Shown here: piece after piece, positions 36,888 through 64,000 of the stretch
Position numbering within the stretch: position 1 is the stretch's first letter
Layout: every line of letters begins with the position of its first letter
Assembly (NCBI GenBank): GCA_051362555.1
Contig: CM120641.1
Coordinates: 8,804,001-8,868,000 of the forward strand
Direction of reading: 5' to 3'
DNA length: 64,000 nt
Origin: Lingula anatina
Taxonomy: Eukaryota; Animalia; Brachiopoda
Made by a program: the position numbers and the translations under genes
Notes under the pieces: generated by a model
Told to the model about the DNA's origin: nothing
What the model saw: the letters and a program-made list of their open reading frames with translations, nothing else
Database searches by the model: none

Positions 36888-37450
36888 AATTGTCTATATT
36901 ACAAATGTTAATTATACCAAGTACATTTAATAATATTTAATAAATGTTAATATTGCAGATATTTGATATTTTGTATTTCCTTAAAGTAGATAATAAGATA
37001 TCTTGGGCATTTTAAGCTTAAAAAATACATATATGGAAAGTTGTCTAACAAACACTTCCTTCAAAAATTCTGACATGGCAATGGCAGAACAAAGACATTT
37101 TAAGGCACCAGACCTATGCTCTTGACAATTTTCACTTTCTGTACACAAGGTGAGGTCAGATTTTACACATTAAATCAATGCTTTATAAATCACAAAACTA
37201 TATATTAAAGTATATCAAAAAGAACAGTTCTATCACATTTGATGGCCATAACCTCTACCCAATGCAAGTCCATCTGTGTAAACATGGTATTTGTCCATGA
37301 GCATATCAATGTAAATTTGTTGCACCTGGTACATGTATATCTATCCTTAGCTGTCTTCATGTAAAGCCAATGCCTTATCGTTAAATTGTGTATATAAAAA
37401 TAAATATTAAATGTGTGTATAAGGTACAACATAGAGAACAGTTCAGTCAA

Positions 37451-40400
37451 TCACTGAGCCATAGCAATCTCTACCCAATACACTTCCTCATCTGTGCATA
37501 ATTCGCCATCATATTTGTCCATGACTATCTTAATGTAAACTTTGGCACCTGGTTCCACTACTCTCCACTTGTCTTCATCCAATCCATTAATACTGTTAAT
37601 GGCATTGTTTATTCTGTCAATGAAATTTTTGCAGTCTTCATCATCTCTGTACTTTGGTGGGATATTTGCTGGATGGATTGGTTTTCCCTTATATTTTTCC
37701 TTACAAAATGTAATGGTATAACGCCTATCTGGAATGTGTTCAACCTGAAAAAGTCAAACATTAGGGTGATCATACACGAGACCTAAACAATTCCTTTTTC
37801 ACTGATATTCCAAGTAATGGTATTGGTACTTCTGCTCTGTAAATGAGTACATGGAATCACCAAGTAAAGACAAATATGTTACAAAACCCCATAGAGGCAT
37901 CAGGGTAAAACTGCACCAAAATGTCATCTCAGAATACAAAACAAAAGTAACATGCAAAACACGAGCACAGGATTCCAGTGATTGCGCATGTACAAAAAGT
38001 AAGCTGTTTGAAATGGACAAATGTTGAAATTGACAAAGCCTGTCCGAGTCTACTGTCTGGTTGATTTGATTTGCTTTCTGGTGTCGTTTTGAGAAAGTAT
38101 ATTGGAAATGTTCTGTTGATTGTATGTATGAAAAGGTAAATCCATCCGACTTTGCCTAGAATTACACTTATTTTGCCTGCATTTTTTGGGGGGGGGGGGG
38201 GTTCCATCCCTCTCCCAATCTTGATAAATAAAATGGTTCATTTGGCAGATTAAAAATGATATTCCAAAATGCATTTTAAATTGTAGGAAGGTCAATTGCA
38301 GGTAATGCTGCGAGGATGTTTTTATTTGGGGCCAAATTGGCCAATATAGAATTTTTAACTTCTACTTTTGTGTTTTGAGTGCCAGCTCAAATTTTTCAAA
38401 AGCGAGGCATTCATATCAAACACTGTGATACAATTTACCTTGTAAAAATTTGTTTTTTAATAAACACCATAGCTTGGCATACATCAAAAGACTTCTCATT
38501 TATGATTGGAATCTTTAATAAATACAAAATATATATGATATAATAAGCTCTAATGTGATGCCTATTTATTAGCTTAATTGATATTTTTGTAGAATTTAGA
38601 GATTAAAAATGCCAAAGATCGTCTTGTGACCTGGTTATATGTTTTTCCTGTGCTCAAAATGAACGTGATGAATGCATACTGTTTTCCAAAAGACTGTAAC
38701 TCTACAGAACTTATGAGATAACAATAATAACAATATTCTTGAATAAATTCTGTCAGCTTTTATTTGGTACAACACTGCACTCACTTATCTTTCTTTCCTA
38801 CTTCACTTCCAACTCCAAATCCCAACACAAATTCTCACTTGATTTTATGTTAAGTCAAGAGACTACAGGTAGACTATATAAAATGATTTCCATTGAAACC
38901 TGCTATAGTTCATCATGAACTGACCAGATAAAGATCCCGACATTAGACAGTCCAGTCAGAAATCAATTCATATGGATTGTTTAAGATTTTTTCAAATAGC
39001 TCAGAAAATTTCTGGTAAGACTGCGGATTACAGACTAACTTGGATTTGAACTATCACAATTTCTTTGAATACTCTTTTTATCTGAGCTCGGGCAGTAATC
39101 CTTACCTTAAAAACTAAGAGTTCATTTGTTCTGGTTTCTGTAAGATGATCAAGCAAATCCATCAGCTTATTTCCTGCAATGTCGATAAGCAACACTGGCC
39201 CTGATTGAAGCTTGACGTTCTTTGTCAAAAAACAGTGCAAGGGAAAGTTGCGGTACAAGGACTGCTGAAGATCTTCATCACTGTCAATCTCACAATTTAG
39301 TACTTCATCCATCAAACACAGATGCTCTCCTGATATCCTAGCAGGGAAATACCCTGCAAGAAGAAAAAATTGCTTCACTTAAATTCATTTGACATCAGTT
39401 TTGGAGGTTAATTTTTAATTAATGTCACGAGTTACAATACACTAATCATGACCCTCATTTTACATTTTCATGCAATGTGAAGAAACACATAACAACCTCT
39501 TAGCTATAAACAAATCTCTTAATCATCACTGTTATCATATATCAATAATCTATATACTCAGAAGCAATGCAACTGAACTGATAACAAACCCTTTTCTTTA
39601 ACTTGTTCAGCTATATAATCTTTGAAGGCTGACAGCTCATCACCATCTCCTTGAGGTTCATCTTTCAGTTTCAAGACCAAATTTCCTTTGGGAGTAAAAA
39701 CTAATGCCTTCTGGTTCAAGTCCTCCTTGTTGTAATAAGCAATTTTCATAGGGCGTCTATGATGGGAATATATTTCTGGTTGTTGGATACCATGATTTAA
39801 ATTATGTAATTCCCTTTTGACATGCTCATACACATAACTTTGTAGGATTTCAAAAGAGATGTACCCTTTTACTGATGCTTCTTTTTGCATCGTTTCACAC
39901 AAGCTACATGTGTTATTACTATCCTGAAGGCCACATTCTTGACCACTTTTCAGTCCATTCACCATGTGTTTTGTGAAGATACTTAGTCCATCACAGATCA
40001 TTGCACGAGATGTCTGATGCTCTGCACAGGACCACCATTGGTAAGAACAACGGTTGTCAGAATCAGAAGGTTCGCCTTTTACAATATATCTATGATGAGG
40101 ATTGATGGCTGCACCATTACTAGGGGATGCACTATCTGAATCAGCTTCTAAATTCTTGGCTTCCAGTGGCAACTCTGTAGTGGCTTTAGCATCTCCAGCA
40201 GCATTTATGGGACCAATATGACAGCTCTCTGGACTTGACTGCACATCTGGGAGTCCCATATCGATGACACTCATTTTATAATCCACTTTGCCGTCTGCCT
40301 CTAGACTATCACTTTGGCTGACGTCTGTTATGGTCTGAGCAGAACCCATTGTTCCCTTTTCAATATCCCTATTAGAAGCTGCAAAACAGCAATCCAATAT

Positions 40401-41743
40401 AACCAGTTTCTCTGAAGCAGACACGCCCCCTAGCATAGTCTGAAGTTCACTCTTAGTAATATCAAAAGCCTTTTTTCCTGGTAGCGGTTGTAAACCACTT
40501 TGAGTGCCATGTCCTGAATAATAGAACACAAATGTGATTTCTGGAAGCCCTGACGTCTTATCCTTTATTGTATTTAGATGTTCTTCTATTTCCTGCTTTA
40601 CCTTTTTACTGTCTTTGTCACACAAAACTGTATACACTTGGTTCTCCCTGTTGAAAAAGAAATTTTAAACATAGTCAACTAGAAAGTAAAAATGTACACG
40701 TGAGATATGCTATCAATAGTTGATCAAGTAGCAATCAACCTACATATATTTTGTCATTAATATCTTAAAACTTTTTTATAAAAACAGTTGATTATTATGA
40801 AATAATTCAGAAAAGCCGGAAAACAAAGCACAGCCAGATACTTAGTAGTACACGTATTTAAGGATTGAAAAACCTGCAAATTCAAACAATGAACTTGTCT
40901 TTCACATGAGAATATATCAAATCTCTACCCTTAATAAAAATAATAAACAAGGCAGCAAAGCTGTCAAATGTACAGACAAAAAACAGAAAATAAAGATGCA
41001 AAAAAGGTCATTTTGTCAATTTTGATGCATTAATAAATAATGCTTATAATAGCACTGCCAGTCAACACTGAATTTTAATCATGCACAACAGGTAACATGG
41101 TCAATAACAGGAGCGGACCCTGAGATATTTTCTGACAGTATTCCAAAGTATCTATGTTGATCCATCCTCCACTTTGATGGTCTTCCAACAGAAAAAAATA
41201 GATACCAGTCAATATAAACTTAATAACTTGACTGTCTTCCGGAAGACCCAGAAGATGGTCTCAATCCACCCCTTCAATAAGATTACAGTTTCATGTCCAT
41301 GAGAGACCAAAGTCGCACGATGAAAGTCTCAATATTTGAAAAATGATGACAGTGCATAAAATAATATTACATAATGTTTAAAGACATAAAAACAATACAA
41401 CTGCTTCTGTGGAAATACGGAAAATTTTGCAGAGCCTCGAGCGGATTTGAGTTAAAAGTCACAAATGCAAGTGTTTGAGAAAAAATTATAAAGGAAAACA
41501 TAACAAAACTAGAACAGCACTCCGAGAGTGCAGACCTCTGCCAAGGCAGCAATTGTTGATTATTATTGATTGATAATTGATCCAGACCACCACCAAAAAT
41601 TAATCATTGGCCCACTTCTGACAGTTCCTTTTTGAGTAATGTTGATGACAGACAAACAGGGGTGAAAATATAACCTCCTTTGCAGAGCCTGAGGTAAATA
41701 TAATTCCAATGATGCTGCTATTCAAACTTTTCATCTTTGTGTT

Positions 41744-41780
<37 letters not shown>

Positions 41781-42916
41781 CCTGAATAATTTACCTCCAT
41801 AATTATCACTGCTTCCTTATTATTAATCTAGCAGAGAGCTTAACCTTTGGGAGTTTACAGGGAGATATCAACAAGTGTGCTTTATGTAATCTCATTTAAT
41901 GGCCTATTAATAATCAATTAGGCAAATGACTTTATAACTCAGAGCTCAGCTAAGTGATACCCAAGGGAAATTTACAGACTGACCCTCTCAAAGGCCTTTT
42001 AGACCCATAAGTCACATCTTAAGAAAAGCACAAAACAAAATAGGAGACTACCAATTCTGATGCATTAATACATTATGTTTAACTGCACAGTCAACATCAA
42101 ATTTTAATTATGCATAACAGGTAACACCAACTAAAGTAGGAGCATAAGGCTTCAGGCCCATCAAAGTTCAAGTTTATACTAAGAAAGTGCCAGAATGAGA
42201 AAAATGAAAATTTCACACAAAACTGCATAAATTATTCAATAATAAACAATAACCCAATTGACCTGGCTTTCTAATTTGAACTGCATGCCAATCCTTGAAA
42301 TCATACTTGGAAGTTAAAAATAATAATAAGTAACACAATTTTCTTTTCATAATGTTTGCAGTAGCAGTGCAAAAAGATTGTTGTCAATTTTGATGTAACA
42401 TTACATAATAAATTGTAGAATAATTATCACCAATTTTTGATTATTGACTATAAATAGCATGGACATGTAGAAAATTTGATTACCATTCGCCTTCATGTCC
42501 ATGGGAGCTCCGAGTCCCACTACGAATATGCCAAAAAGATAATGAATATTTCACTCAAATGTATAACTTCCAGAAAAAGAAGCAAATTAGACTGCTTTTC
42601 CATTTCCAACTCAGGCTGCATTTTAGTTCAGTGTTTCTTTTTCAAAGGTTTGACAGTCATAAGTAACACAGTTTTTTTATAATGGTCATCATGGCAGCAG
42701 CACCAAAAATTGTGTTTTCTTCTATTTTGATGCAACATTACATAATGCTTTACAGCAAAATGACCATCTATATTTTAATAATAGAATATTAGTAACATGG
42801 ACATTTAGAAAATGTGACAAGCAAAGGTCTTCAGGATCATGGAACTTCAAAGTCACACCTTGAAAATGCCAACATGTGAAAAATTAAATTTTCACAAAAA
42901 ACTGTTTAACTGCCAA

Positions 42917-42987
<71 letters not shown>

Positions 42988-45900
42988 GACTGCATTGCCT
43001 ACTGAAGCTGTATTATAGTCCCATGTTTCTTTCCTGTAAGTTTGAGAACAGTAAGTGACATGATTTTCCTTAAATGGTCATCAAGGGAGCAGTGCCCAAA
43101 ATAGGGGTTTCTTCAAATTTTGATGCAATATTACATAATTTTTAACAGCTTAATGACCATCAATTTTTAATTATAAAATATATGTATCACAGATATTCAG
43201 AAAATGTGACTAGCAAAGGTCTTCAGGCCCATGGAACTTCAAAGGCACATCTTGAAAATGCCAAAATGTAAACAAGACAGCACTGTTCTGAAATGGGTTC
43301 ATTTCTATTTTTAATACTTTTTTAATATAAAACAAAATAAACATTTTACTGCCATTTTTATATGACCAACTAAGAAAATTGATGAGATGGGAAAAGTATC
43401 AAAAGAACAGTGTTAAATGTCAGATTTCCTCCATTCTGAGATTCTGAACATAGTGGATGATTGAATCTGACAAACTGCAATGATATGAGTTTATTTCCAT
43501 TTTTGACACTTTATTATACAGTACACAATATCAAGTTTACCATTATTTTTACATAATCAACTAACAATGTTGTAAAGATGCAGGAAATATCAAACAAACA
43601 CTTTAACGTATCTTATTAGTTAAATAAAGAGACTGTTAACATGCTTAAGAATTGAATCTGAGGAAATGTGAAAAAAAAAACAGCATAACTTCTAAAATAA
43701 TAGCCCGATTATGCTGATTTTCGAACTCAACCTGCTTTTTGGTAAGATTGACTACTCCTGTAAGTATTATGACAATTGGCCTATCTGTTTTTCTTATATT
43801 GTGTTATCAGTGTTGCATATATGTTGGAAAAAGTGAAAATAAAAACAGCTAAACTTCCATAAAAATGACCCGATCATGCTGATTTTCGAACTTGACCGGC
43901 GTATTATGAATATTCATCAGTTCTGAAACTTTCAAGCCAAAAGGTAAAATGGTGTTCCACTAATCATGTTTACGGTGTTGCATATATGCTGAAAAAAGCG
44001 AAAAAAAAGCATAACTTCCCTAAAAATGACCCGATCATGCTGATTTTCGAACTTGACCGGCGTATTATGAATATTCATCAGTTCTGTATGTTTCAAACCA
44101 AAAGGTAAAATGGTTTTCCACTTATCGTGTTTACGGTGTTGCATATATGCTGAAAAAAGTGAAAAAAAAAGCATAAATTCCCTACAAATAGCCCGATCAT
44201 GCTGATTTTCGAACTTGACCGGCGTATTATGAATATTTATCAGTTCTGTAAGTTTCAAACCAAAAGGTAAAACGGTTTTCCAGTTATCGTGTTTACGGTA
44301 TTGCATATATGCTGAAAAAAGTGAAAAAAAAGCATAAATTCCCTACAAATAGCCCAATCATGCTGATTTTCGAACTTGACCGGTGTATTATGAATATTCA
44401 TCAGTTCTGTAACTTTCAAGCCAAAAGGTAAAACAGTTTTTCACTTATCGTGTTTACAGTGAAAGTGCACGCCAACGGCGACGGCGACGGCGACGACAGA
44501 CGCAGATGATGGCAATATGTACAGACACATCTGTGTCTGTACATAAAAAAGATTGCTGTTTTGATCATCAATTTCCATTTAATCATCTAATAGGCATTTT
44601 GATTCATAAAGACATATTTAGCAAATATATTACTAAAGTGACCACAGAAGCAAACTTTACCTAGTATATACATACCTGAAACCCATAATGTTGGGATTGA
44701 TGACAACTTTTTTGAATTCTAAGACATCTCTTTGAAAGATGTCAGGATCGTCTTCATCAAACCCACCAACCAGTATGGCATAACTGCTATCATGACCTTA
44801 AATATGGTAATTAAAAAGTTTCATTTAAGCAGATAATTGATGGGGGGAAAAGCACTACATTTTATTTATTTTTATTTTTTCTAAAACCCAACTACAAATG
44901 TCCTTAAATGCTACTATATAACATTTTAAAGAGACTAAGCATACGTAAGATTTCAAACAAACAGCATTTTGTTTAACTTACCTTTGGCCAATTTATAATT
45001 ATCAACATTTTTTAATAAATAAAGGCCACAAATTTATGTCACTAAATATAATTTATCATCACCAGAAGAATATGTCAACCATCTTAACAGTTTTGGATTG
45101 TTCTCAGTTGTCAGTTCTCAAAGGTATGGAGGTATTTCAAAACCCACCCTTTAGCATGGGCTTAAGACTTTGTTATTTTCCCAGATTATTATAGAGTTCA
45201 CTGTGCATGTTTAACTATACAGCATTTACAGTGAAGATGGCTATTTCGCTACAAACGGTTATAGTTCAAATACAAATTGCCAATATCATACATGTAGTCT
45301 CTAGGATGGTGGCATTCTTTTACAGAATGCTGCTGCAATCTAAATAATTGTTTTCAATCTGGATGAGGCAACATTCCAAGACATTATGGGCATGTAAAAC
45401 ATTTTGACAGTCTGCCTTAATTACTATACCCTGTCATAATCCCTATCACAACATTGAGGTCTTTGAGCGCATTCAAAAAAGTTGATCTGCAGACTAACAG
45501 ATCCGCAGATTAAATATGCGTGACCCACTTCAAAGTGATACCACTAATCTCCAAATGGTCTCCCTGCCTCCACACGCCATCCCTGCACAGGCCTAGCAAT
45601 TAAACCTCAGAACCAAGATTTAATCCGCTTAATGGCACATGTGGAAGCAGGTAGACCATCAGTGAATTAAACAGCTTGCTTTTAGTGGGGTTAGCCATAT
45701 TTAGTCTGTGGATCAGTTAGTCCAAAGAACAGCTGTTCTGCATGTGCTGTATCTAACCCTGAAAGATTGTTTTGGATTAAGTTGGAGGATATATGTTCAT
45801 GGTAGAAGTCAGGATGTATCATACCAGAAAGATGCAGAGAACACTATGCAAGTTCAATAAATTGGCTTTTTAAGAGATTACAAAAGATATTATCATTAAT

Positions 45901-48900: not shown

Positions 48901-51900
48901 AGGGGGGGGGAGCTTCCCCCCCCCCTCCCCCGGAGGCTCAGCCCTGGAATATAAGACTTCCCATCCAAGATCAAAGAAATTGTAAGAGCTTAAAAAATTT
49001 GCAAAGTGCCGTTCATGGTGAAAAGTAGGTCAAATTCAAAATCATACTGAGATGATCAATATATGACTTCCAATTCAAGTTCAGTATTAACTAAATTTGA
49101 AGGGATTTGCAAAGAGCCGTTCATGGTGAAAAGTAGGTTTAAGGTCAAATTCAAGGTCATAATAAAATTTCCAATATATGACTTCCTATTCAAGTTTAAT
49201 AGTAACTATTCCTAGACCAGTGCACAGACAAAGTGCAAAGTTTACATGGATAGAGCTAAGATTATATGTGACCTAAATCCAAGAGATGGGTATGCAGGCT
49301 TTTGTAGTCTAAGAGCGGATTCTCAACGAATTGAGCCAGGCTTTACAAAGCCGGTGACCTAAAAATGGCGGACGTACATGAAAGAAAAACCGCCTAATCT
49401 TTTAATAGTCTCTCCGCCTCCCCACACGTCGTCCCTGCGGGGTACAGTAATTAAATCTCGGCTCCAACCTCCAACTACGTCTACTGGGGCTGGGTAGTTC
49501 TGTGAATATCTCTGGTGATATTATCTCCGTAGATAGTCGATTCGTTGCTGCTCTACGGGCCAATTCATTCCTTTTTCGTCTCTGTTTTGACAGATAATAA
49601 AACAGAAGAACTTTTTTCCTTCGAACGCCTTCAGCCGCCATGCTTTCTTCACCACGAGTTTAACTGATGAGCATGCGCACTTAATATTTCTCAGGTAGCT
49701 TCCGCATGGCAAACAGAGCCGAGATTTAATTACTGTATCCCGCAGGGACGACGTGTGGGGAGGCGGAGAGACTATTAAAAGATTAGGCGGTTTTCTTTCA
49801 TGTACGTCCGCCATTTTTAGGTCACCGGCTTTGTAAAGCCTGGCTCAATTCGTTGAGAATCCGCTCTTAGTCTAAGAGGAAGTGGTTACAGTGATGTGGT
49901 GGCAGAGCCAGTGGAACCTCGCGGACAAGACATGTCTGGACTAAAACCATGTGTACTGCCAGCACCTTGCTAGTGGTACAAAAAACTTAACAAAAATTAA
50001 AGTGCAAAAGTGCCAAATAATTCTAAAAAGCACATACATAAGTATTAAATTCAGGATATTCTTCCCTTTTCGATTTTTTTTTATGTAACAATGAAATGAA
50101 TACTGATTATCACAACATTTATCATTTAAAACCTTCACTGATAAAAATATGGAACATGTACTTCAAGTTATGAAGACTTTTGTGCCTTAAAATCAAAATA
50201 ATTATTAGAGTTTACATTGAGCAACACCTACCTCTCTAATGCTATCCTGGAGATCATCCAGACTTATTCTGTTGGCAATTGGTTTCTTTATGCACTTCAG
50301 GGCCAACTCAGCAAATTTATATGTACATTTGAACATCTTCTCTGATCGAACAGGCCAGATTCCAGGTAAATCTTTCTGTGCCTTTGAAGAAAAAGAGGGC
50401 ACAGTAAAGCAAAAGCAATTTGGTAATGTTGCAAGACACAAGTTTCTACAATAATTTCCCATTTATGGCCAATGTCAACATAGCACTTATATTCATAAAG
50501 CAGTGCAACAAGTTCATGGTGCAAAGAAGGTCAAAGGACAAATCCCAGGTCTGTTAAAATGTCAATGAATGACTTCCTTTTCAAGTTCAATAGTAACTTT
50601 GGGCATATCTCTGCCAGTTTTGGAGATATAAGGTCCACAAAGATGAGTTTGTGATGAAAAGTAGGTCAAAGGTCAAATTCAAGGTCACAGTAAGATTGCC
50701 AATATATGAATTTTTATTCAAGTTCAATAGTAAGTATGGGCATATCCTTGCTAGTTTTGGAATATTTCACCATAGAGCATTTCAATGTTGAACATTTTGA
50801 AAAAAGCACAACTAATATATGTTTGGAAAAAGTGTTGCTCCTGATAAGCCCTACATAATGCAACAAACAAGATGTCTCTAGTATTTCTGCATCTAATGGC
50901 TGCCTCTCCTGTAACAATGACCCCAAACTTACAAACATGAAAGGAAATCCAAGTGAAGTTCCTCACCATAGTATAAAAACTTAAGTCCCTGTACTTTCAG
51001 AGTATTGGCACAAACAAGTATTTCTTTGCAGAAAATTAAATTTTTTACAAAATTTTGCCCCGTTCTCCACATGACTTTTGGTCAGACTTCTATAGTAACT
51101 TTTCCCATTATTCATCCAATTTGGGGGATATTAAGCATTTAATTTTCAAAATTTTTGACCAGGGTAAATTGCGATGAACATCACACCTACATGTACAGTT
51201 TTGTGCAGAGAAGATGACATTACGGATACGGATAAAGCAAAACCGATTAAGTTGTCTTACGTACGCCCCTTAAGAGGACAAAAGAATTGTGTGAAAATTC
51301 GTAAGCTAAGGACAATGCCGACTTACGTATATTTTACGGACATCTTACGTACATCTTACACACATGCAGCGATGAGTAAGAAGGGGTGGGCTTATGTAAA
51401 TAAGGTGACGGCGGGGTGTTTCTCGCCTTGCGGCAACACAACCATGTGTGAAAAGAGGCGTGATATATGATCCCGCTTAATTGTGGGCTATTAAATCGTC
51501 CTCTGTTACGCTGCGACGCAACCCAAACATGACAAAACCCTGGTTAGAATGGGACGTTTAAGAGTAATTTACATTGATTTATTGATTTCTTGTAAAAAAT
51601 CAATCCCAACAGAGACTACTAGGATGCCCAGTCAATCCTTACCTTCGCCAGCAGTTATGCACGCGATTCTTCTTTTAAAAGGTGTAAGGCATTTTTTTCA
51701 AACAACTTGTTTCTCAAGCTCCGCCGACTTTAAAATGGCCAAAAAAAATAAAATTGAAACCAAAAATAATTTTGTTTTTTTTTTCACCAATGTCCGACTG
51801 ATCATACTGTTCAATTGGAATAACATAAACGCAAAAATTCTTTTTCACGGTACTCTCACGTCACATGACTGCCTACAAGTTGTAAACGAAGGCCATTTGT

Positions 51901-52873
51901 GCCAAGGTAAACGCTTGGTTCATTTCCTCGAGCTTCCAGTTTTTAAGCCAATCAGTACTTCGTTGATATTTCACACTACTCGTTCGACTACGTGTCAAAT
52001 TAATGCAAAATGGCAGGAAAGTGAGCTGGAGTAGCCGTCTTGATTTAAGCAGGAATTTGACCACTGTTGTGTGGCTCAGTTTATAGTGAAGGAGGGACCC
52101 AGTGTTACAGATGTTTTAGGCAATTTAATGACTACTTTCTGTCGGAAATGAACATATCAGTTGCAACACTTGCGTCACGTGTGGAGTGTTTAAACAGGGA
52201 ACCAGCAGCGTAAAGAGCACAAAGCATGTTTTTTTATTATTATTTTGTAATTTACAAGAATGATTGACATTTATTTAGAAAAATAAAACATTGAAAATAA
52301 ATTGCTGTTTTTTGTCCAGAAATTGCTTTACTGTGTTTTAGTTTTTACCATTGTCTTATGTAGTGTTGAAAGTGAGTTACCTAAAAGTATTTTTCACTTT
52401 ATTTCACTATTTTTCACTTTTCACCCCATCCGACCTCTGTCAAAAATAAAAATTGTTTGAGAAAATAGTAATTAAGGCGTGAATATCACTGTAACACTAC
52501 CTTTGTTAAACGCACAATTACAGGCCAGTCATTATCGGTGGGGGTGAGGGGGGGGGGGGGGGGGGGGGGTTATACCAGTGTATGAAATTCAAGGAAATTA
52601 CTAGCCAGACCACCAGGCAGGTAACTCTGAAAAGTTACCAGCCCAGCCATGTAGTTACCTGTCCTAGTTATGATAACCCCTAGAGTTAAAGGAGGTATGC
52701 TGAGGGGGTCTAGAATGCATTCTTGGGAGAGTAATTTGGAAATGAAAGGGCAATATCATGCCTTATGCGTGGAAATTTAGAAATTGGTTGGAATTTCTAC
52801 TGAATGATACCTTGTCAGTGTTGGATTTAGAGGGGTCAGGGGGGTCCTGACGCCCCCCATCTTCAATTTCTAC

Positions 52874-52905
<32 letters not shown>

Positions 52906-55900
52906 CCCTCATGAAATAAGACTTTTCACTAGTGGAATCATAGTTCTAAACCATACCAAATGGCACCATTCACCATCTAAAATACCAAAAATTTTCAGGG
53001 CCCTTTAGCGGGCGGGGGAGGGGGGTAGTCAATTCAGTTTATGTTAACCTTGCAGGCTGTCTCATTTCTTCTTCAATAATTTATTCATAACTTTTATTCC
53101 GATTTCATGATATCATTTGATCATAATTTTTGCTTTTCTGTATAGCAACAAGTATGACCAAATACATATATATTCTTTTCAAATAAATCGATCTCTGTGC
53201 TGACAATAAAGAAGAAAGAATTCAGCACGTAGGGTCCCTTTGAATATCGCTTAAAGCGGTCGGGAATGGTCCTGCACCCTAATGGCCCATAGACAGTCCT
53301 GCAGGGCCTCGTATCTCGAAAGCATCGCTTATTGAGAATAGCTATGTCACACAGAGGCTACAATATATTATACGGGGCGAGTATAGGTGAGTTATTGGAT
53401 CGAGATGCTTGCGCTCGGTCGCAATGCGTGATACTTTTGAGTTACGGTTTTACAAAAAATGTTGCCGCTCGACTCATTGCAAATCGAAGTCACCTTTCCA
53501 TGGGTCCCAATTTGTTCTCTTTCGTTTGGTTCTGTCGTAATCTCTCTTATTTTTATTTCTTCCCTCAATTGTTTTTCTTTTGTGAACTTCTCTATCGGAC
53601 TTGATAGAATTTTTTTTCATTTTTGACAGCCCAAGATGAAAGCACGTGGGAAAAGAACTACATCTGATGCACGGCGTAAACTCATACGTTCATTCATAAT
53701 TTTGGGATTCAAATTTTTTGTAAAATTCTCCTTTAATTTGCCTCCGTTGCCTTTATTACTGTTGATTATAAGCACTTCATGTACCTGTAAGTCTATTTAA
53801 TCAATATCATAACTTTTTATACTTTCACATTTTTATTACTCTCAACCTACAAATTGCTACTCGCGGTATCTCTACACAAAACAATGACGTAACATTATCT
53901 GCTGTGCACTGAATCTGGTTAAGATCAATTTGCCCCGTTTCAAATTGTCTTTCAACTTGATATCACACAGACGGAACTTTGAAAACGAGGCCACTGAGAG
54001 GGAGACTGTTGGTTACATTTCGATACGAGCGTTCGATTGCAAGCTATGGTTAGTTCTTTAATTGCTTCTATGAAAGTGGGTGAAAACAGTGAGTTGATTT
54101 GATATTTTGCTGAAATCACTTGTGAACATAGACAAAATAAAAGGTGAATATAGGCTGTAAAAATAGCCAGCCCGTCGGGCGGGTAATTTGTAAATCTTAC
54201 CCGCCCGGCCTAAAAGTTACCAGCCTCGGGCTGGCGGGCTGGCGGGCTGGCGGCCATTTCATACACTGGGTATACGCTAAATCTATTGTATTACAATATA
54301 TAGAGCCTGTGTCTGCTTTGACAAGAGTCAGTATGGTGTACAATACTAGATAGTAAAGAGGTGCTAATAGTAATCCGTAATTATGCCGTTTCTGTAGCAC
54401 ATCCCACCCTCCTTGATTTTAGTTTGCTTACTAGTCGATACCCTATTTAGCGCAGTCTAATTTTAAGAGTGTTGTCTTTTTTTGTTTTATTTTTTTTTAC
54501 CCGTTTAAGCAACGTCCAAACCTGTGTAATGAACATCAAACTTACAGATCACATCAACAACATAACAGTATAAATCTTAACGGAACCTTCTTTCTGTAAT
54601 GTTTGAGTTAATTGGTGGTGGGCAGAGTCTTATTATTCAATGATGATAATAATAATTGTAGAAGTAGGGCTACATGTAGTCGCACAAAAGCACATTCCTT
54701 AATTCTGTGATCTATTCTAGGGTGTAGGTTTTCGTATATTTTTTAACTGAGTCTGTACCATCAACTTACCAGCTTTGGACAACTGGCGAGCAGACATTTT
54801 TCCTCTAGGGATGATAATTTCACTGTTGTCAGGTGCTGGTCTCATATCGGCAGTTGCCGCAGGGAGCGTGATTGAAATCAAAACTTGGCACATCTTGAAA
54901 GTTTAAGTCGGACAAAAGAACTTCAGGTGACCCTTTTAATCAGAGCTGCCAGGTAAGCTAACAGTTTAATTACTGCAACGTACAGGTAAATTGAGAGTTG
55001 CGATAAGATCACCTTCTTCCTATCTCTCCATCAACATATTTCTTGAGACTGCCTTTATTTTCGTTCACTGTTCCACAAGGATAATTATCAAACGAAGAAC
55101 ATTGTATGGAGAAGGGGTTTTTATTCATTATTTTATTCATGAAACAATAAGCAAACTGCTCGTTTCAGCAGAAGGATGGGAATATAAAACCATTTATTTA
55201 AAATAAAGTTCTTAAAAAACTGCTTGCTTAAAGCATTCCATCAAGATACATGTGAACTAAATCTGGATTGAATAAGTTGTATGAATAATGTCATAAAAGA
55301 ATATTTGCTATATGAATATATGCCAGACATTTCACTCATTGCGATAGATAGAATATTCTGCTATAAAATAGAAAAAAAAAACAGAAGGTACTGGTGACAG
55401 CCCGTATCGGTAATGTATAATTTGGCAGAGCAAGCTTACATGCACCAAACCAAACAAATTTCAAAAAACAATTTTTGTAACATATTTATTGGTAATGTTA
55501 GCCGGTCAGATTCCTTGAAAACATTATATAACCATACTGGCAGAGACTAATAGAAAAGTGCAACAGATTGGCTAGGTCAGCAAGTAGATGTAGTTATCGA
55601 TGAAGGTTACTTCTGACAAATGAATTGCGGTAAAAAATGATAAAAATTTTCACCACAATCAAAATAAGCCGTAAAGCCAAAATGTCACATAAGATGACAA
55701 AATTACAAGTAAGACGTGGCACTTCTTTGACTTTGGCATTTTAAGTCGAACAAAAGATTTTGGTGACACGTTTAATCAGAGTTTACCTGCCACGTAAGTT
55801 AGATTAATAACTCCAAAGTACAGGTAGACTGAGATTTTCGATAAGATCATCCACTCATTTCTCCATCTCCGCAATTCTTTGGAGCGTCCGATAAGATCTA

Positions 55901-58900
55901 AAGGGACTCGGGCACGTGGATTACACGGAATTACCATGATCGTTGATTATCTTCCTTAAATGCTTGCTTAAGCTCCGATCATCCATTTTTAGCCGACTCC
56001 ATGTTCTAAGAAAATCCTTTTAAAAACCCTTTCTACAAGCATTTAATTTGATGTACGAGTCAATGGATATTATCTTCGTCGTCTTAATCTACAATTGAAT
56101 ACTCCGCGCCGCTTCATAATTAAAAGTAAAAAAAAAAAAAAGAAAAACGTGTATTGTAAAAAGAAAAACGTGTATTGTAAATATCCACATATACCTTGTC
56201 AGTAACCTTTTCAACATCACAACAAGTTCCGTCTTCATTCCTGAACTTCTCCCAAATGTAACTTTTGTTGTCCTCATCGTCATCTTCATCTTCATCTTGT
56301 TCTGCTTGCATCAACCTCAGCATAACTAAAAAAAAAGAGAAATGCCATAACTATCATTTACTGAGGCATATACAGAACAAGGAGGGCACTCCCTAACACA
56401 TCCCTTTTCCAGACTGTCCCTAGCATAGCAAGAAGTGAAAAAAAATGCCCCAAATGCTCCCAAAATGGACCCCCTTTTTTCCCCCCTTCAAGATCATTAT
56501 TTGCATAGGAGAAGTGGGTGCATGCTTGACAACTTTAATCCACCAAGTAAATCAATGTTACAGCTACAAGGCACATTTATAGTTGGAATTTTCTACATGA
56601 GAAACATAATCTGAGTATGCATGAAGCTACCATGAAATATACACAACTTACAAATGTACCATAAAACCATTAACAGCTAGCCCTTACTTTATCAAAAAAA
56701 AGAGTGGCCATGTTGGTTCACTTTGTAGTATAATTTACAAATTCAAAAACATTTGTAAAATGGTATGTAAAAACATTCACTATGACTGGGTTCCCATACC
56801 TAGATTGATCTAACAGGATCAATCCATCTCAGAGGGGTTTCTCACCAAATTGCTTTCAGCTTAAGCAGCATAGATGTCTGGCATGCCTACTGAAAACAGC
56901 TTCAGTAGGCGTGACAGACATCTAAGCCTCTTAAGTTCATTGCAATTTAGCGAGAATCCCCTAGGAGATAGATTGATCTACAGTTAGTACAATAGGGTCT
57001 GGGAATGGTCCCTAACACACAAAAATATTTTGGAATATGCACTGGCACATGCATTAATTTCAAGACTTAATACTCTGCCATAAAAGAATAAATAAAAAAG
57101 GCAAATTTTCTGCAGTATATATGTCAAGGAGAGCATTTATCTTTTAATCAAGCTCCTAAGCGAACAACAGAGCATCTTGCATATAAAAAGCTGCATTAAA
57201 ATAATTTATAATGGGTGTGAAATATATGAGAAACAATAAGTCTGCATTCATCTTTTTGAAATTTCTTAGATACTTTCCCATTTGTACTGAATATTTAAGC
57301 TAATACTAGCACAGCTACTGACTTTGTGATCCAATATTTCTTACCAACTCCAACACTGAAAACATCATATTCCTTGCGGTACTTGTTCTTATAGGAGGAG
57401 TAGAGAAAGTCTGGATCCTGATAACTAACAGCACCATGGCCAATAGCAGTAACTTTGCTCTGTTTAGACTTCATCTCTGTAGCCAATCCATGGTCTCCAA
57501 TGCGGGCATTTAATTCCTGATCCAACAAAATGTTGCTGGGTTTGATATCCATGTGGAGAATAGAGTTTCTGAAAGGCAAAATTTTTTATTAGCCAAAATA
57601 AAGGAAAAAATTCTTCATGGAGAGAATGCTGTAAATACATACTAGTATTGCATTTCAAGGAATCAGCATTGTGAAAAGACAAACAACATTTAAAAAGTTA
57701 CTATAGACTAAGATTTTATAATTTTCAATCCTTTTAAAATCAATGTTCAAATTACACATTAATTTTTCTTATCATGGCTCTTATTCATCTAATCAAAAAA
57801 TAAAAACTGAATATACATAAAATTTACCAAAATGTATTTGAATCTATTCTTCTTTTATGATTGTTTATTTATTTTATTTATTTTTTTTTTTACCTAATTT
57901 TAACACCCCCACTCTTAACTGGTGTGTGGAGATATTGTAGGCCTGCACAGACTTGGTATATAATGCGGCACCTGTCACGCCAGCCTGGTACAGGACTTGT
58001 ATTTTTTAGTACATAATCCAAGTCTCTCTTCTCCATATATGGATACATCAAATAGATTTCCCTGAAGGTAGGAAAAACATCAGCCAAGACTGTTCAGAAG
58101 TATAGTTGGTTAAAGTCATAATAACTCTTCATTTTGGCCAAAAATTGGATTTTCCTGGAGTAAACAGCAATTTTCCCGTACTTACCAATGGTCAGCGACC
58201 CCATTCCTGCATTCAAAGTTAATCCAGGGTTTTTTTCCTAAACGTACGGTTTTTTGTTAAAATCTCTGAAGAGATTTTAACTGACGGAGCTCTCTCTGAC
58301 ATCGCATAATCACTGTTGAACTACTTAAAACCGCGGGAAAAGCAGACAACAACAACACTATATAAGATTCATGAGATATATTCGTCTTTTTGTTAAAAAT
58401 ACATTAATATCCACAATGTGTGCCATTCTGGGCTTTTCGTTATCCGACGCACAGTACAAAAACTCGCAACTTACGTCTGCGTCTGCATTAATGTGTTTGG
58501 CGCCATATGTTATTTTGGTCTCGAATGATCGCGAGAATCCGCATGACACCATTACGTCATTAGCAACGAATGCCTTGATGGCCGGGAAGAAAAGCATCGA
58601 AAGTCCTTTTGACAAGCACAGATTTTAGTTTTACTACAATAATGGCCGTTTTAGTGGTAAAATACAATAGAATATATTTCCATGCGTTGTTTACAATGTA
58701 TTTCATGCGGAATTTTGAATCTCAAAGGAAGAGTTATTATTGCTTTAATCTACTGCCAAAAAGCAGTTATTTGTTTGGCACAAACCCAAACAAGTATGAT
58801 GTTATCTGATATGTTCACCAATAGAAAATTTGATTCTGGTATGTCTTTGTCCCAGATTTAAGCGTGTCATTTAAGTGTCATTTTTGGCCAAGAATTAAAG

Positions 58901-59663
58901 AGTTCAAAATACACACAATGTTTGGCAATGCAAAATTGTTTGTTATAATAAGACAAATCCACCTCCTTTTACATAAAAGCACCCCAGTGTAATCCAACAC
59001 ATAGGAAGTATTGTGGATGTGCAGATATATTAAATACAACATAAACAAAATAAATTTTTGCTTAACCTCAAGAAATGAACATTCAAAAGCAGTCCTTAAA
59101 TGTTATTTTTTACAACCAGCACAATGAACAGGGACTGCAGGAGGATTGCACAGTGGGGCATTGCAATCAGGTGTACACATTCTGCAGTTGAAGGACTGAA
59201 ATATATATATTGCTTTATATATTATTATTATTATTCTTATGCTCTTTTATACTCACTTCTGTGTAGCTGCAACTGCATATAATGGCAACAGAAAGGGATG
59301 TCTTATATGACCAACAATCTTTTCCTATTAAATATGAAAGGAAGAAATGGTTAAGAAAGAAATGCAACTTTATTAAAACCAAACCTCAAACATTCAGGTT
59401 TCTTTACATGACATAACACTGACAGAGCTCTGTAAATTATACTTCATATAAATTCTTTTTTCATTTTAGTCAAGCCCAGCAAGACATTCAACTGGAATTG
59501 ATAACTAGCTGTAATTGGCCAATTATCTGGTATTTAGCAACTGCAAATCAATTATTACTAATATTTGTAACTGAAGATACCTTCACATACTGGAGCTCAT
59601 GTTCCTTTTTGGCTTTCTTACAAACTTTGATGGCAACTTCTTTGTCTCTGTATTTTTTGGAAC
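37451..59663 (-). CDS. Multidomain protein: Pelle/IRAK-like non-RD kinase + RING-like Zn finger + metacaspase-type peptidase C14 + unknown C-terminal region (5' exons not found in window)
   Basis: Exons 59663-59581, 59324-59257, 58061-57894, 57568-57345, 56325-56195, 50381-50232, 47608-47533, 46276-46136, 44796-44676, 40647-39590, 39353-39106, 37744-37451; every junction is GT-AG and phase-matched; 2762 nt = 2 nt + 920 codons, no internal stop seen. Confidence 0.85.
39590..44796 (-). CDS. Caspase-like (C14, meta/paracaspase-type) domain portion of the fusion gene
   Basis: YAILVGG..FQRDV (exon 44796-44676); FVFYYSGHG (His codon 40509-40511); LVILDCC (Cys codon 40386-40388); p10-like WSCAEHQTS..GLSIFTKHMVNGL and ISFEILQSYVYEHV..QQPEI. 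Confidence 0.88.
41509..41698 (-). mobile_element. Short HINE/Helitron-like non-autonomous element
   Basis: CTAGAACAGCACTCCGAGAGTGCAGACCTCTGCCAAGG start with hairpin, ACAG microsatellite remnant, AACCTC..GAGGT end. Confidence 0.6.
42040..43262. repeat. Degenerate ~360-380 bp tandem-like repeat units
   Basis: Recurrent blocks TTTTGATGCAACATTACATAA, AGAAAATGTGAC.AGCAAAGGTCTTCAGG..CATGGAACTTCAAAG and GAAAATGCCAA. Confidence 0.6.
43270..44548. mobile_element. Second Helentron-type element with an internal ~161 bp tandem array
   Basis: About 4-5 units (CCCGATCATGCTGATTTTCGAACTTGACCGGCGTATTATGAATATT near 43870, 44030, 44192, 44353), (ACGGCG)n microsatellite, hairpin TATGTACAGACACA-tc-TGTGTCTGTACATA 44516-44545, A-run. 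Confidence 0.75.
45465..45748. mobile_element. Degenerate MITE of the GAGCGC-terminus family
   Basis: GAGCGCATTCA..GCAGACTAACAGATCC start and a decayed inverted end, similar to the outer element at 15740-16188. Confidence 0.55.
46136..47608 (-). CDS. RING-like Cys/His-rich exons of the fusion gene
   Basis: Spliced peptide CCKCNLNYPALDLHPRIGCTGPGKEEKCRLFCQGCLMDHYRNPLYCPTHG: CxxC...H...C...C...FCxxC...CPxH. Confidence 0.7.
46870..47370. mobile_element. Decayed relative of the 43270-44548 element
   Basis: Repeated CATGCTGATTTTC units, (ACAG)n, decayed hairpin TATATACAGACACT..AGTGTCCATATATA. Confidence 0.55.
47854..48946. mobile_element. CAGGG-terminus non-autonomous DNA transposon hosting a LINE fragment
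   Basis: CAGGGCCGTAGCCT ... AGGCTCAGCCCTG imperfect TIRs; GAATA on both flanks. Confidence 0.6.
47955..48768 (-). mobile_element. 5'-truncated LINE (L2/CR1-like): C-terminus of the RT ORF plus (TAT)n tail
   Basis: LVHAFITSHLDYGNSLLYGLP..KLQSVQNAAARL..LHWLPV..RI.FK..YGHRAFS..AP.LWNQLP; minus-strand 3' end AAATAAATA(TTA)n. Confidence 0.9.
49313..49866. mobile_element. Young MITE with ~150 bp near-perfect TIRs
   Basis: 49313-49464 is the near-exact reverse complement of 49716-49866; GAG...CTC ends; TAGTCTA(A) repeated in both flanks. Confidence 0.9.
50232..59663 (-). CDS. Protein kinase domain portion (Pelle/IRAK-like) of the fusion gene
   Basis: VAIK, alphaC Glu (YVKE), IRHPFLLPL, LMYPYME..DL, W.DR.RI...CAGLQYLH, ILHMDIKPSNILLD, IGDHGLA, YQDPD, YDVFSVGVVML, LALKC....NR. 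The Gly-loop exon was not found in the window. Confidence 0.92.
50520..51170. mobile_element. Internal fragment of the 17925-type element
   Basis: Tandem-unit sequence (AAGTAGGTCAAAGGTCAAATTCAAGGTCA) and downstream body similar to 18540-19030. Confidence 0.65.
52576..54268. mobile_element. Non-autonomous hAT-like element (~1.7 kb) with probable internal insertions
   Basis: 13 bp TIR CAGTGTATGAAAT / ATTTCATACACTG; subterminal GCCAGCCC/GGGCTGGC repeats; flanks GTTATAC / GGTATAC resemble a TSD. Confidence 0.7.
56786..57010. mobile_element. Palindromic MITE, same family as 36298-36544
   Basis: Fold-back centred on GCCTACTGAA..TTCAGTAGGC; sequence shared with the RPUSD1 intron copy. Confidence 0.65.
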
Positions 59664-60072
59664 CTATAATGCAACAAGGCCATTACAGATAAATATCAGT
59701 AGCAAAACCATTAAAAATACCAGGAACTAATAAGTAAAATATTGACAAATATCCTCTTACTGGCATTATGAAAAATAAAATTGGATAAAACATAATGTTT
59801 GTCTTTTAATTATTTTGATTAGTTTAACTTTAATAACTTTACCAATACAGCCCATATTTGAACTGCATTTTAGTGACATGAAATGCTCCAGTGTTTCATG
59901 ATAATAATCAATACAGTTATCCATTTATTGCATTTACATTTGAAAAGTGCATGGCAATGACGACAATAGATTCAGATGATAGTTTCATGTTCAGTCAAAC
60001 TTTGTCTGTACATAATATGCAATCTAAGAGCATTTAACACAGGCATCTTAAATACATCTTTCAAGACATTAA

Positions 60073-61995: not shown

Positions 61996-62700
61996 CAGGG
62001 ATCTCCCAGGGTTCCTTTTTGCGCCATTGGCGCGCACAGATTTGTAATGACGCACTTTTTCAATAGCAGTGCGTCCCAAGGGTGCATCAAAAATAAATAA
62101 ATTTAAAAAAAGGAGTTTGTTTGTTCAACATATTTTAAACTGTTAAAATTGTGTATTTTTAAACCCACCAAAATTTTACTAAACTTGGAACAAGTGTCAG
62201 TCGGGAAAACCGAACTTCAAAGTTCTAGTCTTACGTCAACTGCGTGCGTTCTCTGCATGGAGAGTACCTTCTCTGGGTAGAGAGTACACCGGAAGTTCAG
62301 AGATGCCCGCGCCAAAAGTAAAGCAGCCGAAGCTTTCGTTTTTTTGGCATACGAGTAATGTACCAGATAGCGGACATACTAGTGGTAAAGTACCAGATAG
62401 GGAGCCTCCACTAACTTCCGTTAAGAAGTTTCAGCAAAGTTGGCTGCAGAGATTCCCGTGGCTGCGCTTCGACAAGGAAAAGTCAACCACGTGGTGTGCA
62501 CCATGCAAAAAGGCGGGCAAACGTAATACCATGGCCCTGGGGGTATCGTCCAACCTTCTCACCAGTACGCTCACCCGCCACGTTGGAATGACCAACCATG
62601 TATGCGCTATCCAGTAACTTAAATAAATTTACTCTGGTTCGAATTCAATTAAAAAATGAGTGATTTTAACTTAAAAGTGTTTCCACGTGTGCAGCCTACT
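61996..62700 (+). mobile_element. hAT-like element start carrying a TTF-type zinc finger transposase N-terminal fragment (ORF 62303-62617)
   Basis: CAGGG terminus; KKFQQSWLQRFPWL...WCAPC...N...TLTRH....H is typical of ZnF-TTF domains of hAT/ZNF862-like transposases; no catalytic domain seen. Right boundary not determined. Confidence 0.7.
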
Positions 62701-63492: not shown

Positions 63493-63795
63493 CTAATGTA
63501 GCGTAAATTCACGATGCCTTAAATTTTTGCATCCTTTAACGAAGGGTCCATTTTTATATTTCTTCCTTGACAAAAGCGGGCCATAAATGGGTATAAACGG
63601 ATATAAAATTTGACGGTTTTCGTTACATATCAGCCAACTAAACTCTGCTTTCCAACTTGGAACAATCGTCCGCTGCCTCTTATTTTGGTCGTAGTCTTTA
63701 CGGACCTCCGTCGCTGGTCGCTTTTCATGATTTTTTTCAGGAAGACCAAGAAACTTTCGTTGCATGTCGGTGCTTCTAAAGACGTAGAAGTTCAA
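63493..63795 (-). pseudogene. Degenerate TTF zinc-finger transposase fragment
   Basis: RQRTIVPSWKAEFSWL...PFVKGCKNLR; the expected CxxC is lost. Confidence 0.55.
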
Positions 63796-64000
63796 ATGTA
63801 CGCTACATTAGTTTGCCACATTGTCTTCTTTATCATATTACCAATGTCACCACTCATTTGTAACCCATTTAAGTCAGGTAAAATATGCAGTAAATTTATT
63901 GGAGAAAGATTTTTATTAAATACTGAAAAAAAATTTTGTATAGTACTAGTTAAAATGCCTTATGATGAAGGAAATCCAAACGTATGCTTTTTTTTCACAC

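Follow-up and report, generated by a model that had tools for sequence, protein, structure and literature searches.

A metacaspase-like C14 peptidase domain in a multi-domain kinase protein of the brachiopod Lingula anatina: candidate for a third animal C14 lineage

Which C14 peptidases do animals possess? In the accessible text of reviews on the subject, animal C14 enzymes are caspases and MALT1-type paracaspases, and metacaspases are described as absent from animals. A locus in the brachiopod Lingula anatina puts this list in question. It lies in a stretch of 64,000 nucleotides (nt) of assembly GCA_051362555.1 (contig CM120641.1, positions 8,804,001 to 8,868,000), which was analysed as a whole and is called the window here; positions count from its first letter. 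A preliminary description, made from the sequence, had found a metacaspase- or bacterial-style caspase domain at 39590..44796; it lies on the minus strand. We observed that the catalytic region belongs to LOC106152876, the gene of an expressed multi-domain protein. Judged from sequence comparison, we read its protease domain as a third animal C14 lineage, of the orthocaspase/metacaspase-like type.

Over 283 aligned residues that end at the 39590 splice donor, the RefSeq protein of LOC106152876 (P0107, 390 amino acids) and the translation of the window are 100% identical, and the window therefore contains the LOC106152876 locus. The C14 domain and the region that follows it are encoded by these exons:

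44676..44796, minus strand: exon of 121 nt with the first strand and helix of the C14 domain (GHDSSYAILVGG...FQRDV...GFR); the codon of the upstream Asp of the S1 pocket is at 44728-44726.
39590..40647, minus strand: exon of 1058 nt with the rest of the C14 domain and the start (first strands, helix) of a predicted beta-grasp domain.
39106..39353, minus strand: exon of 248 nt continuing the predicted beta-grasp domain (PB1/RA/CIDE-N-like), with RNA joints at both ends.
37451..37744, minus strand: last coding exon, 97 codons (37744-37454) followed by a TGA stop (37453-37451), encoding the C-terminal tail.

The motifs quoted in the preliminary description were all recovered in place on the minus strand, with open reading frames (ORFs), translation and codon coordinates in agreement. 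YAILVGG...QRDV is encoded by exon 44796-44676. Exon 40647-39590 encodes, in this order, FYYSGHG, ILDCCF, a disordered linker of ~100 residues rich in Ser, Asp and Glu, and then a p10-like half with WWSCAEHQTS, LSIFTKHMVNGL, a C-x8-C-x2-C motif that is part of a Cys3His insert, SYVYEHV and IQQP. The length of 1058 nt proved exact, and both exon boundaries given in that description are backed by RNA-seq reads. The gene extends beyond 39590: RNA joints and tblastn carry it on through exons 39353-39106 and 37744-37454.

The splice sites of the C14 exons are canonical AG/GT; those of exon 44796-44676 are an AG acceptor at 44798-44797 and a GT donor at 44675-44674. This exon is matched in tblastn by residues 687-733 of a paralogue, P0003 (LOC106168344, 1090 residues), which is 90% identical to the large exon in a word-indexed search. 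The translation of exon 39353-39106 is identical to residues 283-365 of P0107. A third paralogue (P0005/P0006/P0090) led by tblastn to downstream exons near 39414-39088 and 37753-37457, and exon 37744-37454 has 49% identity to residues 286-378 of P0005 (tblastn). The gene has at least three paralogues in Lingula.

The RNA evidence comes from four raw-read RNA-seq runs carrying the same species label, mapped to the window. Mapping over 37300-47700 was swamped by repeat joints in the 40.8-44.6 kb intron, and a narrower mapping over 38900-40760 resolved the junctions. At junction 40647|44676, 28 loose-end reads were observed at 40650 in three of the four runs (5, 12 and 11); once reverse-complemented, the consensus of these loose ends reads as the end of exon 44796-44676. 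Junction 39590|39353 appeared as a joint at 39352/39589, with GT..AG on the minus strand, in 13 reads from all four runs (5, 1, 5 and 2), and junction 39106|37744 as a joint at 37742/39104 in two of the four runs (8 reads in X1 and 18 in X2). Over 38900-40760, RNA depth was found only in 39089-39403 and 39593-40663, and it was zero in 38900-39088 and 40664-40760. The RNA-seq is stranded, as nearly all first mates fall on one strand. Because reads span a window-specific indel near 39800, the window locus, or a close allele, is itself expressed.

Four X1 reads break at 40192 and then encode the five-residue insertion of P0003, which indicates that this paralogue is also expressed and that its reads cross-map. 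The P0107 gene model begins with an internal Met that lies past the catalytic His, and it continues across the 39106 donor into the intron (window 39031-39105). The last residues of the P0003 model correspond, at the window locus (39561-39589), to read-through of the 39590 donor, which is spliced according to the RNA reads. The RefSeq models of these two Lingula genes appear to be wrong, that of P0003 probably through donor read-through.

On the large exon alone, the Pfam model PF00656 (Peptidase_C14) scored 28.7 bits (expectation value, E, 1.3e-6) against a cut-off of 21.4, and P0003 also scored over the cut-off (27.5 bits). Such a match to C14 goes well beyond what chance would give. A phmmer search with the protease region of P0003 against 1.84 billion protein representatives gave 87 hits at E<=1e-3, of which the other 86 were scanned with Pfam. 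From these we defined a family, for which conservation was counted over 53 non-redundant rows, with 55 rows as the outgroup. A profile of 34 family domains, A1, scored at least 120 bits on all family rows but two, which are insert-bearing, and its matches extend through the Cys-rich insert; on the bacterial rows it scored at most 107 bits, and the matches stop ahead of the insert.

The residues expected of a C14 peptidase are in place. The His of FYYSGHG is encoded at 40511-40509, and the Asp and Cys of ILDCCF at 40394-40392 and 40388-40386. As the preliminary description had it, the catalytic dyad is intact in the window together with the Asp two residues before the Cys, Asp(-2), and the upstream Asp, and we observed that all four are conserved across the 53 family members: His in all 50 rows that have a residue there, Cys in 53/53, Asp(-2) in 52/53 and the upstream Asp in all but one of 35 rows that have a residue at its position (34/35). 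SGH has its Ser in 46/50 rows, and the glycine after the catalytic His is swapped in many members (GHC, GHN, GHS, GHH). In the HMMER alignment to metacaspase 4, the family Cys falls on Cys139, the residue mutated in entry 6w8r, and Asp(-2) falls on Asp137; the SGHG motifs of both coincide, and the upstream Asp pairs with the Asp of CVND. The two alignable positions of the S1 pocket thus hold Asp, by this alignment and by the 53-row conservation.

The hallmark of the family is the Cys-x8-Cys-x2-Cys...His insert in the p10-like half (Cys codons 39935-39933, 39908-39906 and 39899-39897; His codon 39824-39822). Its four positions, in the order Cys, Cys, Cys, His, are kept in 52/53, 52/52, 50/52 and 51/52 family rows, and 49-52 of the 55 outgroup rows have gaps there. 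Because of this invariance and the spacing, the insert is likely to be a structural zinc site.

To which kind of C14 peptidase does such a domain belong? The caspase signature QACxG was found in none of the 105 aligned rows with letters at that position, including none of the 53 family rows, and the window reads ILDCCF there. The preliminary description had placed the domain outside the caspases, and this placement held. In the accessible text of Klemencic and Funk (2017), DxCH and a p10 with an acidic 280-loop define metacaspases and DxCR defines paracaspases. Asp-x-Cys, the first part of the DxCH criterion, is present in 52/53 family rows. The Cys is followed by Phe in the window and, over the 53 family rows, by Tyr in 22, Phe in 12, His in 6 and Arg in 2, so that DxCR occurs in only 2/53 rows. 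Judged by its sequence and by the criteria of the reviews, the domain is not a caspase.

Against the sequences of solved structures, the A1 profile found metacaspase 4 (E 2.2e-7, 33 bits), Candida metacaspase-1 (5e-6), metacaspase 9 (8e-6), Yca1 (7e-4), GPI8 (1e-3), T. brucei MCA2 (9e-3), caspase-1 (0.011, 17.8 bits) and GSU0716 (0.05). Six metacaspase sequences lie between 2e-7 and 7e-4, and MALT1 was not listed at E<=10. Single sequences reached less far in the same set: phmmer found nothing at E<=1 with the window exon and nothing at E<=10 with P0013, and with P0024 it found only metacaspase-1 (E 0.0027). The metacaspase matches to A1 take in profile positions 16-149, which is the p20 half only. 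AtMC4 has an Asp/Glu-rich stretch after its His and before its Cys, which we take to be the calcium site; the HMMER alignment sets gaps or a non-acidic consensus opposite this stretch. Activation by calcium, as in metacaspases, is unlikely in this family.

The nearest relatives outside the family among the 1.84 billion proteins are bacterial caspase-family proteins, which spell FYYSGHG and LDCC[FHY][AS]G like Lingula, and the best of them scored three times as high with A1 as any solved eukaryotic homologue. The closest ESM Atlas clusters are likewise bacterial caspase-family clusters (0.94-0.95), which serve as a lead only. NF047832, the NCBIfam model of EACC1-type caspases, gave 47.4 bits on P0003, 47.0 on P0013 and 52.7 on P0024, with an E of 1.5e-12; it is the best-scoring specific model, yet at a cut-off of 140 the family proteins are not members. 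The general Pfam model gave 27.5, 45.7 and 47.7 bits on the same three proteins, NF047832 being 5-7 bits higher on P0013 and P0024 and ahead by a wider margin on P0003. The word-indexed searches and the exhaustive search returned only family members and bacterial proteins. The label 'metacaspase/bacterial-style' of the preliminary description stands in its bacterial part, and in so far as metacaspases are found by the profile, whereas a strict metacaspase assignment is not supported, given matches in the p20 half only and the missing acidic stretch.

The alternative that survives best, although we consider it unlikely, is a divergent paracaspase: the domain would be a bilaterian survivor of the 'type 2' group and a relative of MALT1, with no separate lineage. 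Paracaspases do occur in animals, MALT1 shares Asp-x-Cys and the acidic pocket, and its structure aligns with the modelled domain over 194 residues (Z 18.0). According to the accessible text of a review, type 2 paracaspases are reported in early-branching animals, and paracaspases may be a metacaspase subclass that arose several times, which leaves the names fluid. However, MALT1, the paracaspase of this comparison, is missing from the A1 list to which six metacaspases belong, Arg follows the catalytic Cys in just the two rows mentioned, and the bacterial proteins outscore every solved eukaryotic homologue threefold. The claim of the preliminary description that no Ig domains accompany the protease was also upheld: neither Ig nor death domains flank it as in MALT1, by Pfam on P0003 and by the beta-grasp model downstream. 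As it has neither death/Ig domains nor DxCR, the domain is, by sequence, not a type 1 paracaspase; and as no metacaspase p10 or calcium features could be demonstrated and the host is an animal, it does not qualify as a canonical metacaspase by these criteria. The best fit is with the orthocaspase or 'metacaspase-like protease' group, of which it would be a eukaryotic offshoot with a family-specific insert.

The fold of the domain agrees with this placement in C14. An AlphaFold2 (AF2) model of the P0003 protease domain has a mean predicted local distance difference test (pLDDT) score of 76, with a core above 90 and residues 141-239 disordered. VIA-align superposed it on metacaspase 4 with Z 21.1 (210 residues, root-mean-square deviation (rmsd) 3.0), and the other Z values were 20.5 for legumain, 19.5 for metacaspase 9, 18.9 for GPI8, 18.0 for MALT1, 17.8 for caspase-3, 17.5 for caspase-9 and 17.4 for GSU0716. 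A structural equivalent of p10 is present and carries the Cys3His insert. Foldseek against the Protein Data Bank did not separate the families of clan CD (metacaspase 9, legumain, MALT1 and caspases at E 2e-6 to 3e-4), its TM-scores being lowered by the disordered linker. On this model, the caspase-hemoglobinase fold of the domain is established.

Next to the protease, the protein has several further domains. P0003 is composed of two DEDs (E 1e-30), a TKL kinase (E 4.7e-38), a Cys-rich stretch, the C14 domain and then the predicted beta-grasp domain. Pfam recognised only DED, kinase and C14 in it, and the Cys-rich module matched no family at E<=0.1. In the window, the regions upstream of the C14 exons were located by tblastn with P0003, and their boundaries are approximate:

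~47611-47501 and 46277-46128, minus strand: two exons of the Cys-rich module (P0003 residues 614-689).
50208..59664, minus strand: six kinase exons (P0003 residues 342-622).
59664-59524, 59324-59256, 58078-57902, 57573-57346, 56341-56180 and 50411-50208, minus strand: the kinase high-scoring segment pairs.

The Cys-rich module, with the pattern CxxC...C...CxxC...CPxH, immediately precedes the C14 domain. Family members keep it, including some that have no kinase, and it is likely to bind zinc. Kinase exon 57573-57346 matched plant receptor kinases, RIPK3 and BAK1 at ~5e-9 and B-Raf at 1e-7; by sequence the kinase is of TKL type, an assignment that is coarse and comes from one exon. No match to residues 1-341 of P0003 was found in the window by tblastn, nor a DED or glycine-loop exon. 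Death-fold exons were sought in 59.7-64 kb, and none was found; this stretch holds a 145-bp tandem array and transposon-like ORFs.

The beta-grasp domain was modelled in residues 163-250 of P0005 (window 39106-39740, minus strand) as beta-beta-alpha-beta-beta-alpha-beta with pLDDT 80-90. It matched the PB1 domain 4mjs (Z 8.9, 75 residues, rmsd 2.5), the RA domain of PLC-epsilon (8.3), the PB1 domain of p40phox (8.0) and CIDE-N (7.2). As these Z values are middling, we claim only the predicted fold. Stand-alone family members keep just the first hairpin and helix of this domain, and the last ~130 residues of the P0005 model have no confident fold.

The family as a whole consists of stand-alone proteins of ~300 amino acids and of multi-domain proteins. 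The architectures observed were DED-kinase-C14, Death-kinase-C14, CARD-DED-kinase-C14, TIR-kinase-C14, Ank-kinase-C14, Ank-Roc-COR-CARD-C14 and DED-C14; among the 86 scanned proteins, 15 have a kinase domain and 7 a death-fold domain (DED, Death or CARD). Thirty proteins were looked up, and these comprise 15 from named animals (all 'uncharacterized'), two from Cyanophora paradoxa, two from named bacteria and 11 without an organism name. The animals are Lingula anatina, Owenia fusiformis, Haliotis asinina, Gigantopelta aegis, Ptychodera flava, Glandiceps talaboti, Saccoglossus kowalevskii and Branchiostoma, so that the family spans five animal phyla (brachiopods, annelids, molluscs, hemichordates and amphioxus) and, in addition, a glaucophyte alga. 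The two Cyanophora proteins (P0052, P0054) have the full family signature including the Cys3His insert, one of them is fused to a UPF1-like helicase (AAA_11/AAA_12), and they group with P0024 and P0079 inside the family side of the tree. Vertebrates and ecdysozoan models were not represented among the named hits, which is not a dedicated test of loss.

The bacterial group carries other partners (EAD11, TCAD2, TIR, FGE-sulfatase, SLH and T9SS sorting domains), and its proteins are the conflict-system caspases described by Kaur et al. (2020), as far as the accessible text of that paper goes. In the parts of the open-access literature that were searched, no DED-kinase-C14 protein of this type is described, and the family does not appear in the accessible text of Kaur (2020, 2021), Staal (2018), Klemencic and Funk (2017), Fay (2025) or Krasovec (2024). 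The family is thus previously undescribed in that literature, and an earlier mention may exist, for example in the domain-architecture tables of Kaur et al.

What would such a protein do? Our favoured view, held with moderate confidence and built on sequence, is that LOC106152876 encodes a protein of TKL kinase, Cys-rich module, C14 and beta-grasp domain whose C14 domain would be an active Arg/Lys-specific protease, switched on by death-fold or adaptor proximity. The acidic S1 pocket would select basic residues (Arg/Lys) at P1. In the accessible text of Klemencic and Funk (2017), all characterised non-caspase C14 enzymes with this acidic pocket have basic P1 specificity, and for this reason we infer the same for the family. 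The Cys3His insert would hold a structural zinc. DED, Death, CARD or TIR modules, which stand at the N-terminus in paralogues and orthologues, would recruit the protein to a signalling platform, where proximity would activate both kinase and protease. The beta-grasp domain, if it polymerises, may help this activation, as may cleavage in the long linker between p20 and p10. By analogy with MALT1, its function in immunity or cell death would be to cut signalling substrates by limited proteolysis.

It is also conceivable, and somewhat less probable than a divergent paracaspase, that the C14 domain is a non-catalytic scaffold, a pseudo-protease like c-FLIP, with the kinase as the sole enzyme. About 70% of the effector-position caspase domains in bacterial vWA systems are inactive according to the accessible text of Kaur et al. 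(2020), and the varying residue after the catalytic His and the 9 non-synonymous sites among the 13 RNA variants of the large exon would suit a domain relieved of catalysis. However, the conservation of His, Cys and Asp(-2) given above extends across at least five animal phyla and a glaucophyte and is expected only if catalysis is selected, and none of the 13 variant sites falls on a catalytic or Cys3His residue.

That the protein is an ordinary Asp-specific caspase with an unusual pro-domain is very improbable. Pfam names the domain 'Caspase domain', and the accessible text of Krasovec et al. (2024; PMC11463336) reports kinase, ROC and TIR pro-domain caspases in lophotrochozoans, placed in caspase trees, among which there may be members of this family. 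Against this stand the absence of QACxG from the window and the 53 family rows, Asp in the acidic-pocket positions, and the 17.8 bits of caspase-1 against 33 for metacaspase 4.

Bacterial contamination or recent horizontal transfer into Lingula, which the bacterial motif spelling and nearest relatives might suggest, is hardly credible and was excluded, given the 4-kb intron that splits the domain with confirmed splicing, the in-frame kinase exons, the adjoining Axin gene, a GC content of 30-41%, and the occurrence of three or more paralogues in Lingula and of named orthologues in four other animal phyla. An ancient horizontal origin of the family is a possibility; any transfer would have to be ancient because the family is old in animals (protostomes and deuterostomes), occurs also in a glaucophyte, and has introns.

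Several observations weigh against an active protease of a separate lineage. The structure model and the family profile start from the paralogue P0003, which is 90% identical in the large exon, and not from the window copy. The Z-scores (21.1 to 17.5) are too flat to part metacaspases, legumain, MALT1 and caspases. The residue after the catalytic Cys fits neither the DxCH nor the DxCR convention, and the His-Cys geometry, the third residue of the S1 pocket and the zinc site are drawn from alignment and invariance only. The trees were made from columns without the insert by a quick search; in the full tree of 72 rows, the split between family and bacteria had a Shimodaira-Hasegawa-like approximate likelihood ratio test (SH-aLRT) value of 70 and needed two label changes, and the reduced tree, in which 35 family rows lie on one side of a branch with SH-aLRT 98, was obtained after four long-branch bacterial rows had been dropped and two insert-bearing rows relabelled as family. 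As there is no death-fold exon in the window, recruitment of this copy is extrapolated from paralogues. The kinase keeps its catalytic Asp and has DHG instead of DFG. Of the 237 mapped reads, only 98 are at least 99% alike. The RNA reads vary at 13 sites of the large exon, 9 of them non-synonymous, and at 6 of the non-synonymous sites they have the residue of the paralogue P0003; part of the mapped RNA reads may derive from the paralogue.

With these points included, we put forward tentatively, and with slightly less than even weight, the wider proposal: a third animal C14 lineage, predicted from sequence to be zinc-bearing and Arg/Lys-specific and of bacterial conflict-system ancestry, which would serve in bilaterians as a single-chain death or immune signalosome that combines death-fold or TIR modules, a RIPK/IRAK-like kinase and a PB1-like polymerising domain. 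Brachiopods, annelids, molluscs, hemichordates and amphioxus would have retained this lineage, and vertebrates and ecdysozoan models may lack it.

The remainder of the window was also surveyed. The intron that splits the C14 domain (40770-44586) is filled with repeats, with RNA depth up to 137 on both strands and many chimeric joints; it contains a 161-bp tandem array at 43797-44461 (4 copies) and a GCC/GAT-type microsatellite near 44488. The repeats in this intron are probably transposable elements that are transcribed and that also occur at other places in the genome. A tandem array at 60261-61961 (unit ~145 bp, ~12 copies, 82-88% matches) lies in the intron that precedes the first kinase exon observed, and a related 115-bp unit is found at 48997-49208. 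The ORFs 62183-62617 (plus strand) and 63496-63807 (minus strand) have a zinc-finger-like FSWL/RFPWL motif, the former matches Pfam zf-C17orf113 at E 4e-6, under the family cut-off, and both are probably transposon-derived. GC content is 30-41% throughout the window, and introns are repeat-filled.

Downstream of the C14 gene and on the same, minus, strand is an Axin homologue at 25148-7239: ORF 25148-24093 encodes a tankyrase-binding domain (E 7e-9) and an RGS domain (E 5e-25), and ORF 7580-7239 the start of a DIX domain (E 2e-13). The ORF 29537-29899 (plus strand) encodes a Gly/Tyr/Gln/Pro-rich sequence with QGYGQ repeats that ends in GISPDLWQWFQ. It has no Pfam hit, and we take it to resemble the N-terminal region of penta-EF-hand proteins.

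If the reading as a third lineage is true, animals have a further, widely conserved C14 lineage beyond caspases and MALT1-type paracaspases. This family, whose closest resemblance is to the bacterial conflict-system caspases, would then be found with animal death and immune modules (tandem DED, Death, CARD, TIR, TKL kinase, beta-grasp) in one polypeptide, which would be a concrete link for the proposal that components of animal apoptosis and immunity derive from bacterial conflict systems. It would also offer a natural fusion of recruitment module, kinase and protease for studies of activation by induced proximity, and some of the published lophotrochozoan 'caspases with unusual pro-domains' may move to another subfamily.

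The last point concerns the pro-domain caspases of annelids and flatworms in Krasovec et al. (2024; PMC11463336). In the accessible text of that work, kinase-C14, Ank-Roc-COR-CARD-C14 and TIR-kinase-C14 proteins occur as in the present family. The same text treats the proteins with kinase, ROC, TIR or ANK pro-domains as species-specific caspases, makes no mention of metacaspases or paracaspases, and for L. anatina gives a PARP-domain caspase as the sole unusual one; an overlap with our family is possible by description.

In comparison with known systems, the bacterial EACC1-, EAD- and TCAD-associated caspases are the top relatives (up to 107 bits). They have in common with the family FYYSGHG and LDCC[FHY][AS]G, the block G.G....S...Q.S....S.FT..L..GL after the linker, and frequent fusion to TIR and to effector or adaptor domains. 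They differ in that they lack the Cys3His insert, whereas introns and eukaryotic partner domains (DED, TKL kinase, beta-grasp) are features of the Lingula gene. Among solved structures, the metacaspases (AtMC4, 6w8s/6w8r; AtMC9; Yca1; Candida MCA1; T. brucei MCA2) match best, both by sequence profile (E 2e-7 to 9e-3) and by fold (Z 21.1 and 19.5), and the long disordered linker between p20 and p10 recalls type II metacaspases. Unlike these, the family has the Cys3His insert and multi-domain kinase proteins, and no counterpart of the acidic stretch.

The signalling platform of caspase-8, FADD and RIPK1-RIPK3 offers another comparison. As in caspase-8, tandem DEDs are found in the paralogue P0003, where a kinase comes after them, and the kinase exon of the window matches RIPK3 and plant receptor kinases best; however, the protease of the family is without QACxG, neither a RHIM nor a death domain came up in this copy, no search being aimed at either, and the kinase family is coarsely assigned, B-Raf being nearly equal. 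MALT1 differs by its Ig domains and DxCR, in place of which the family has a kinase, a Cys-rich module and beta-grasp partners. It is nevertheless an animal non-caspase C14 protein with Asp-x-Cys that is tethered to a death-fold domain and acts in an immune complex, and it offers the closest functional analogy.

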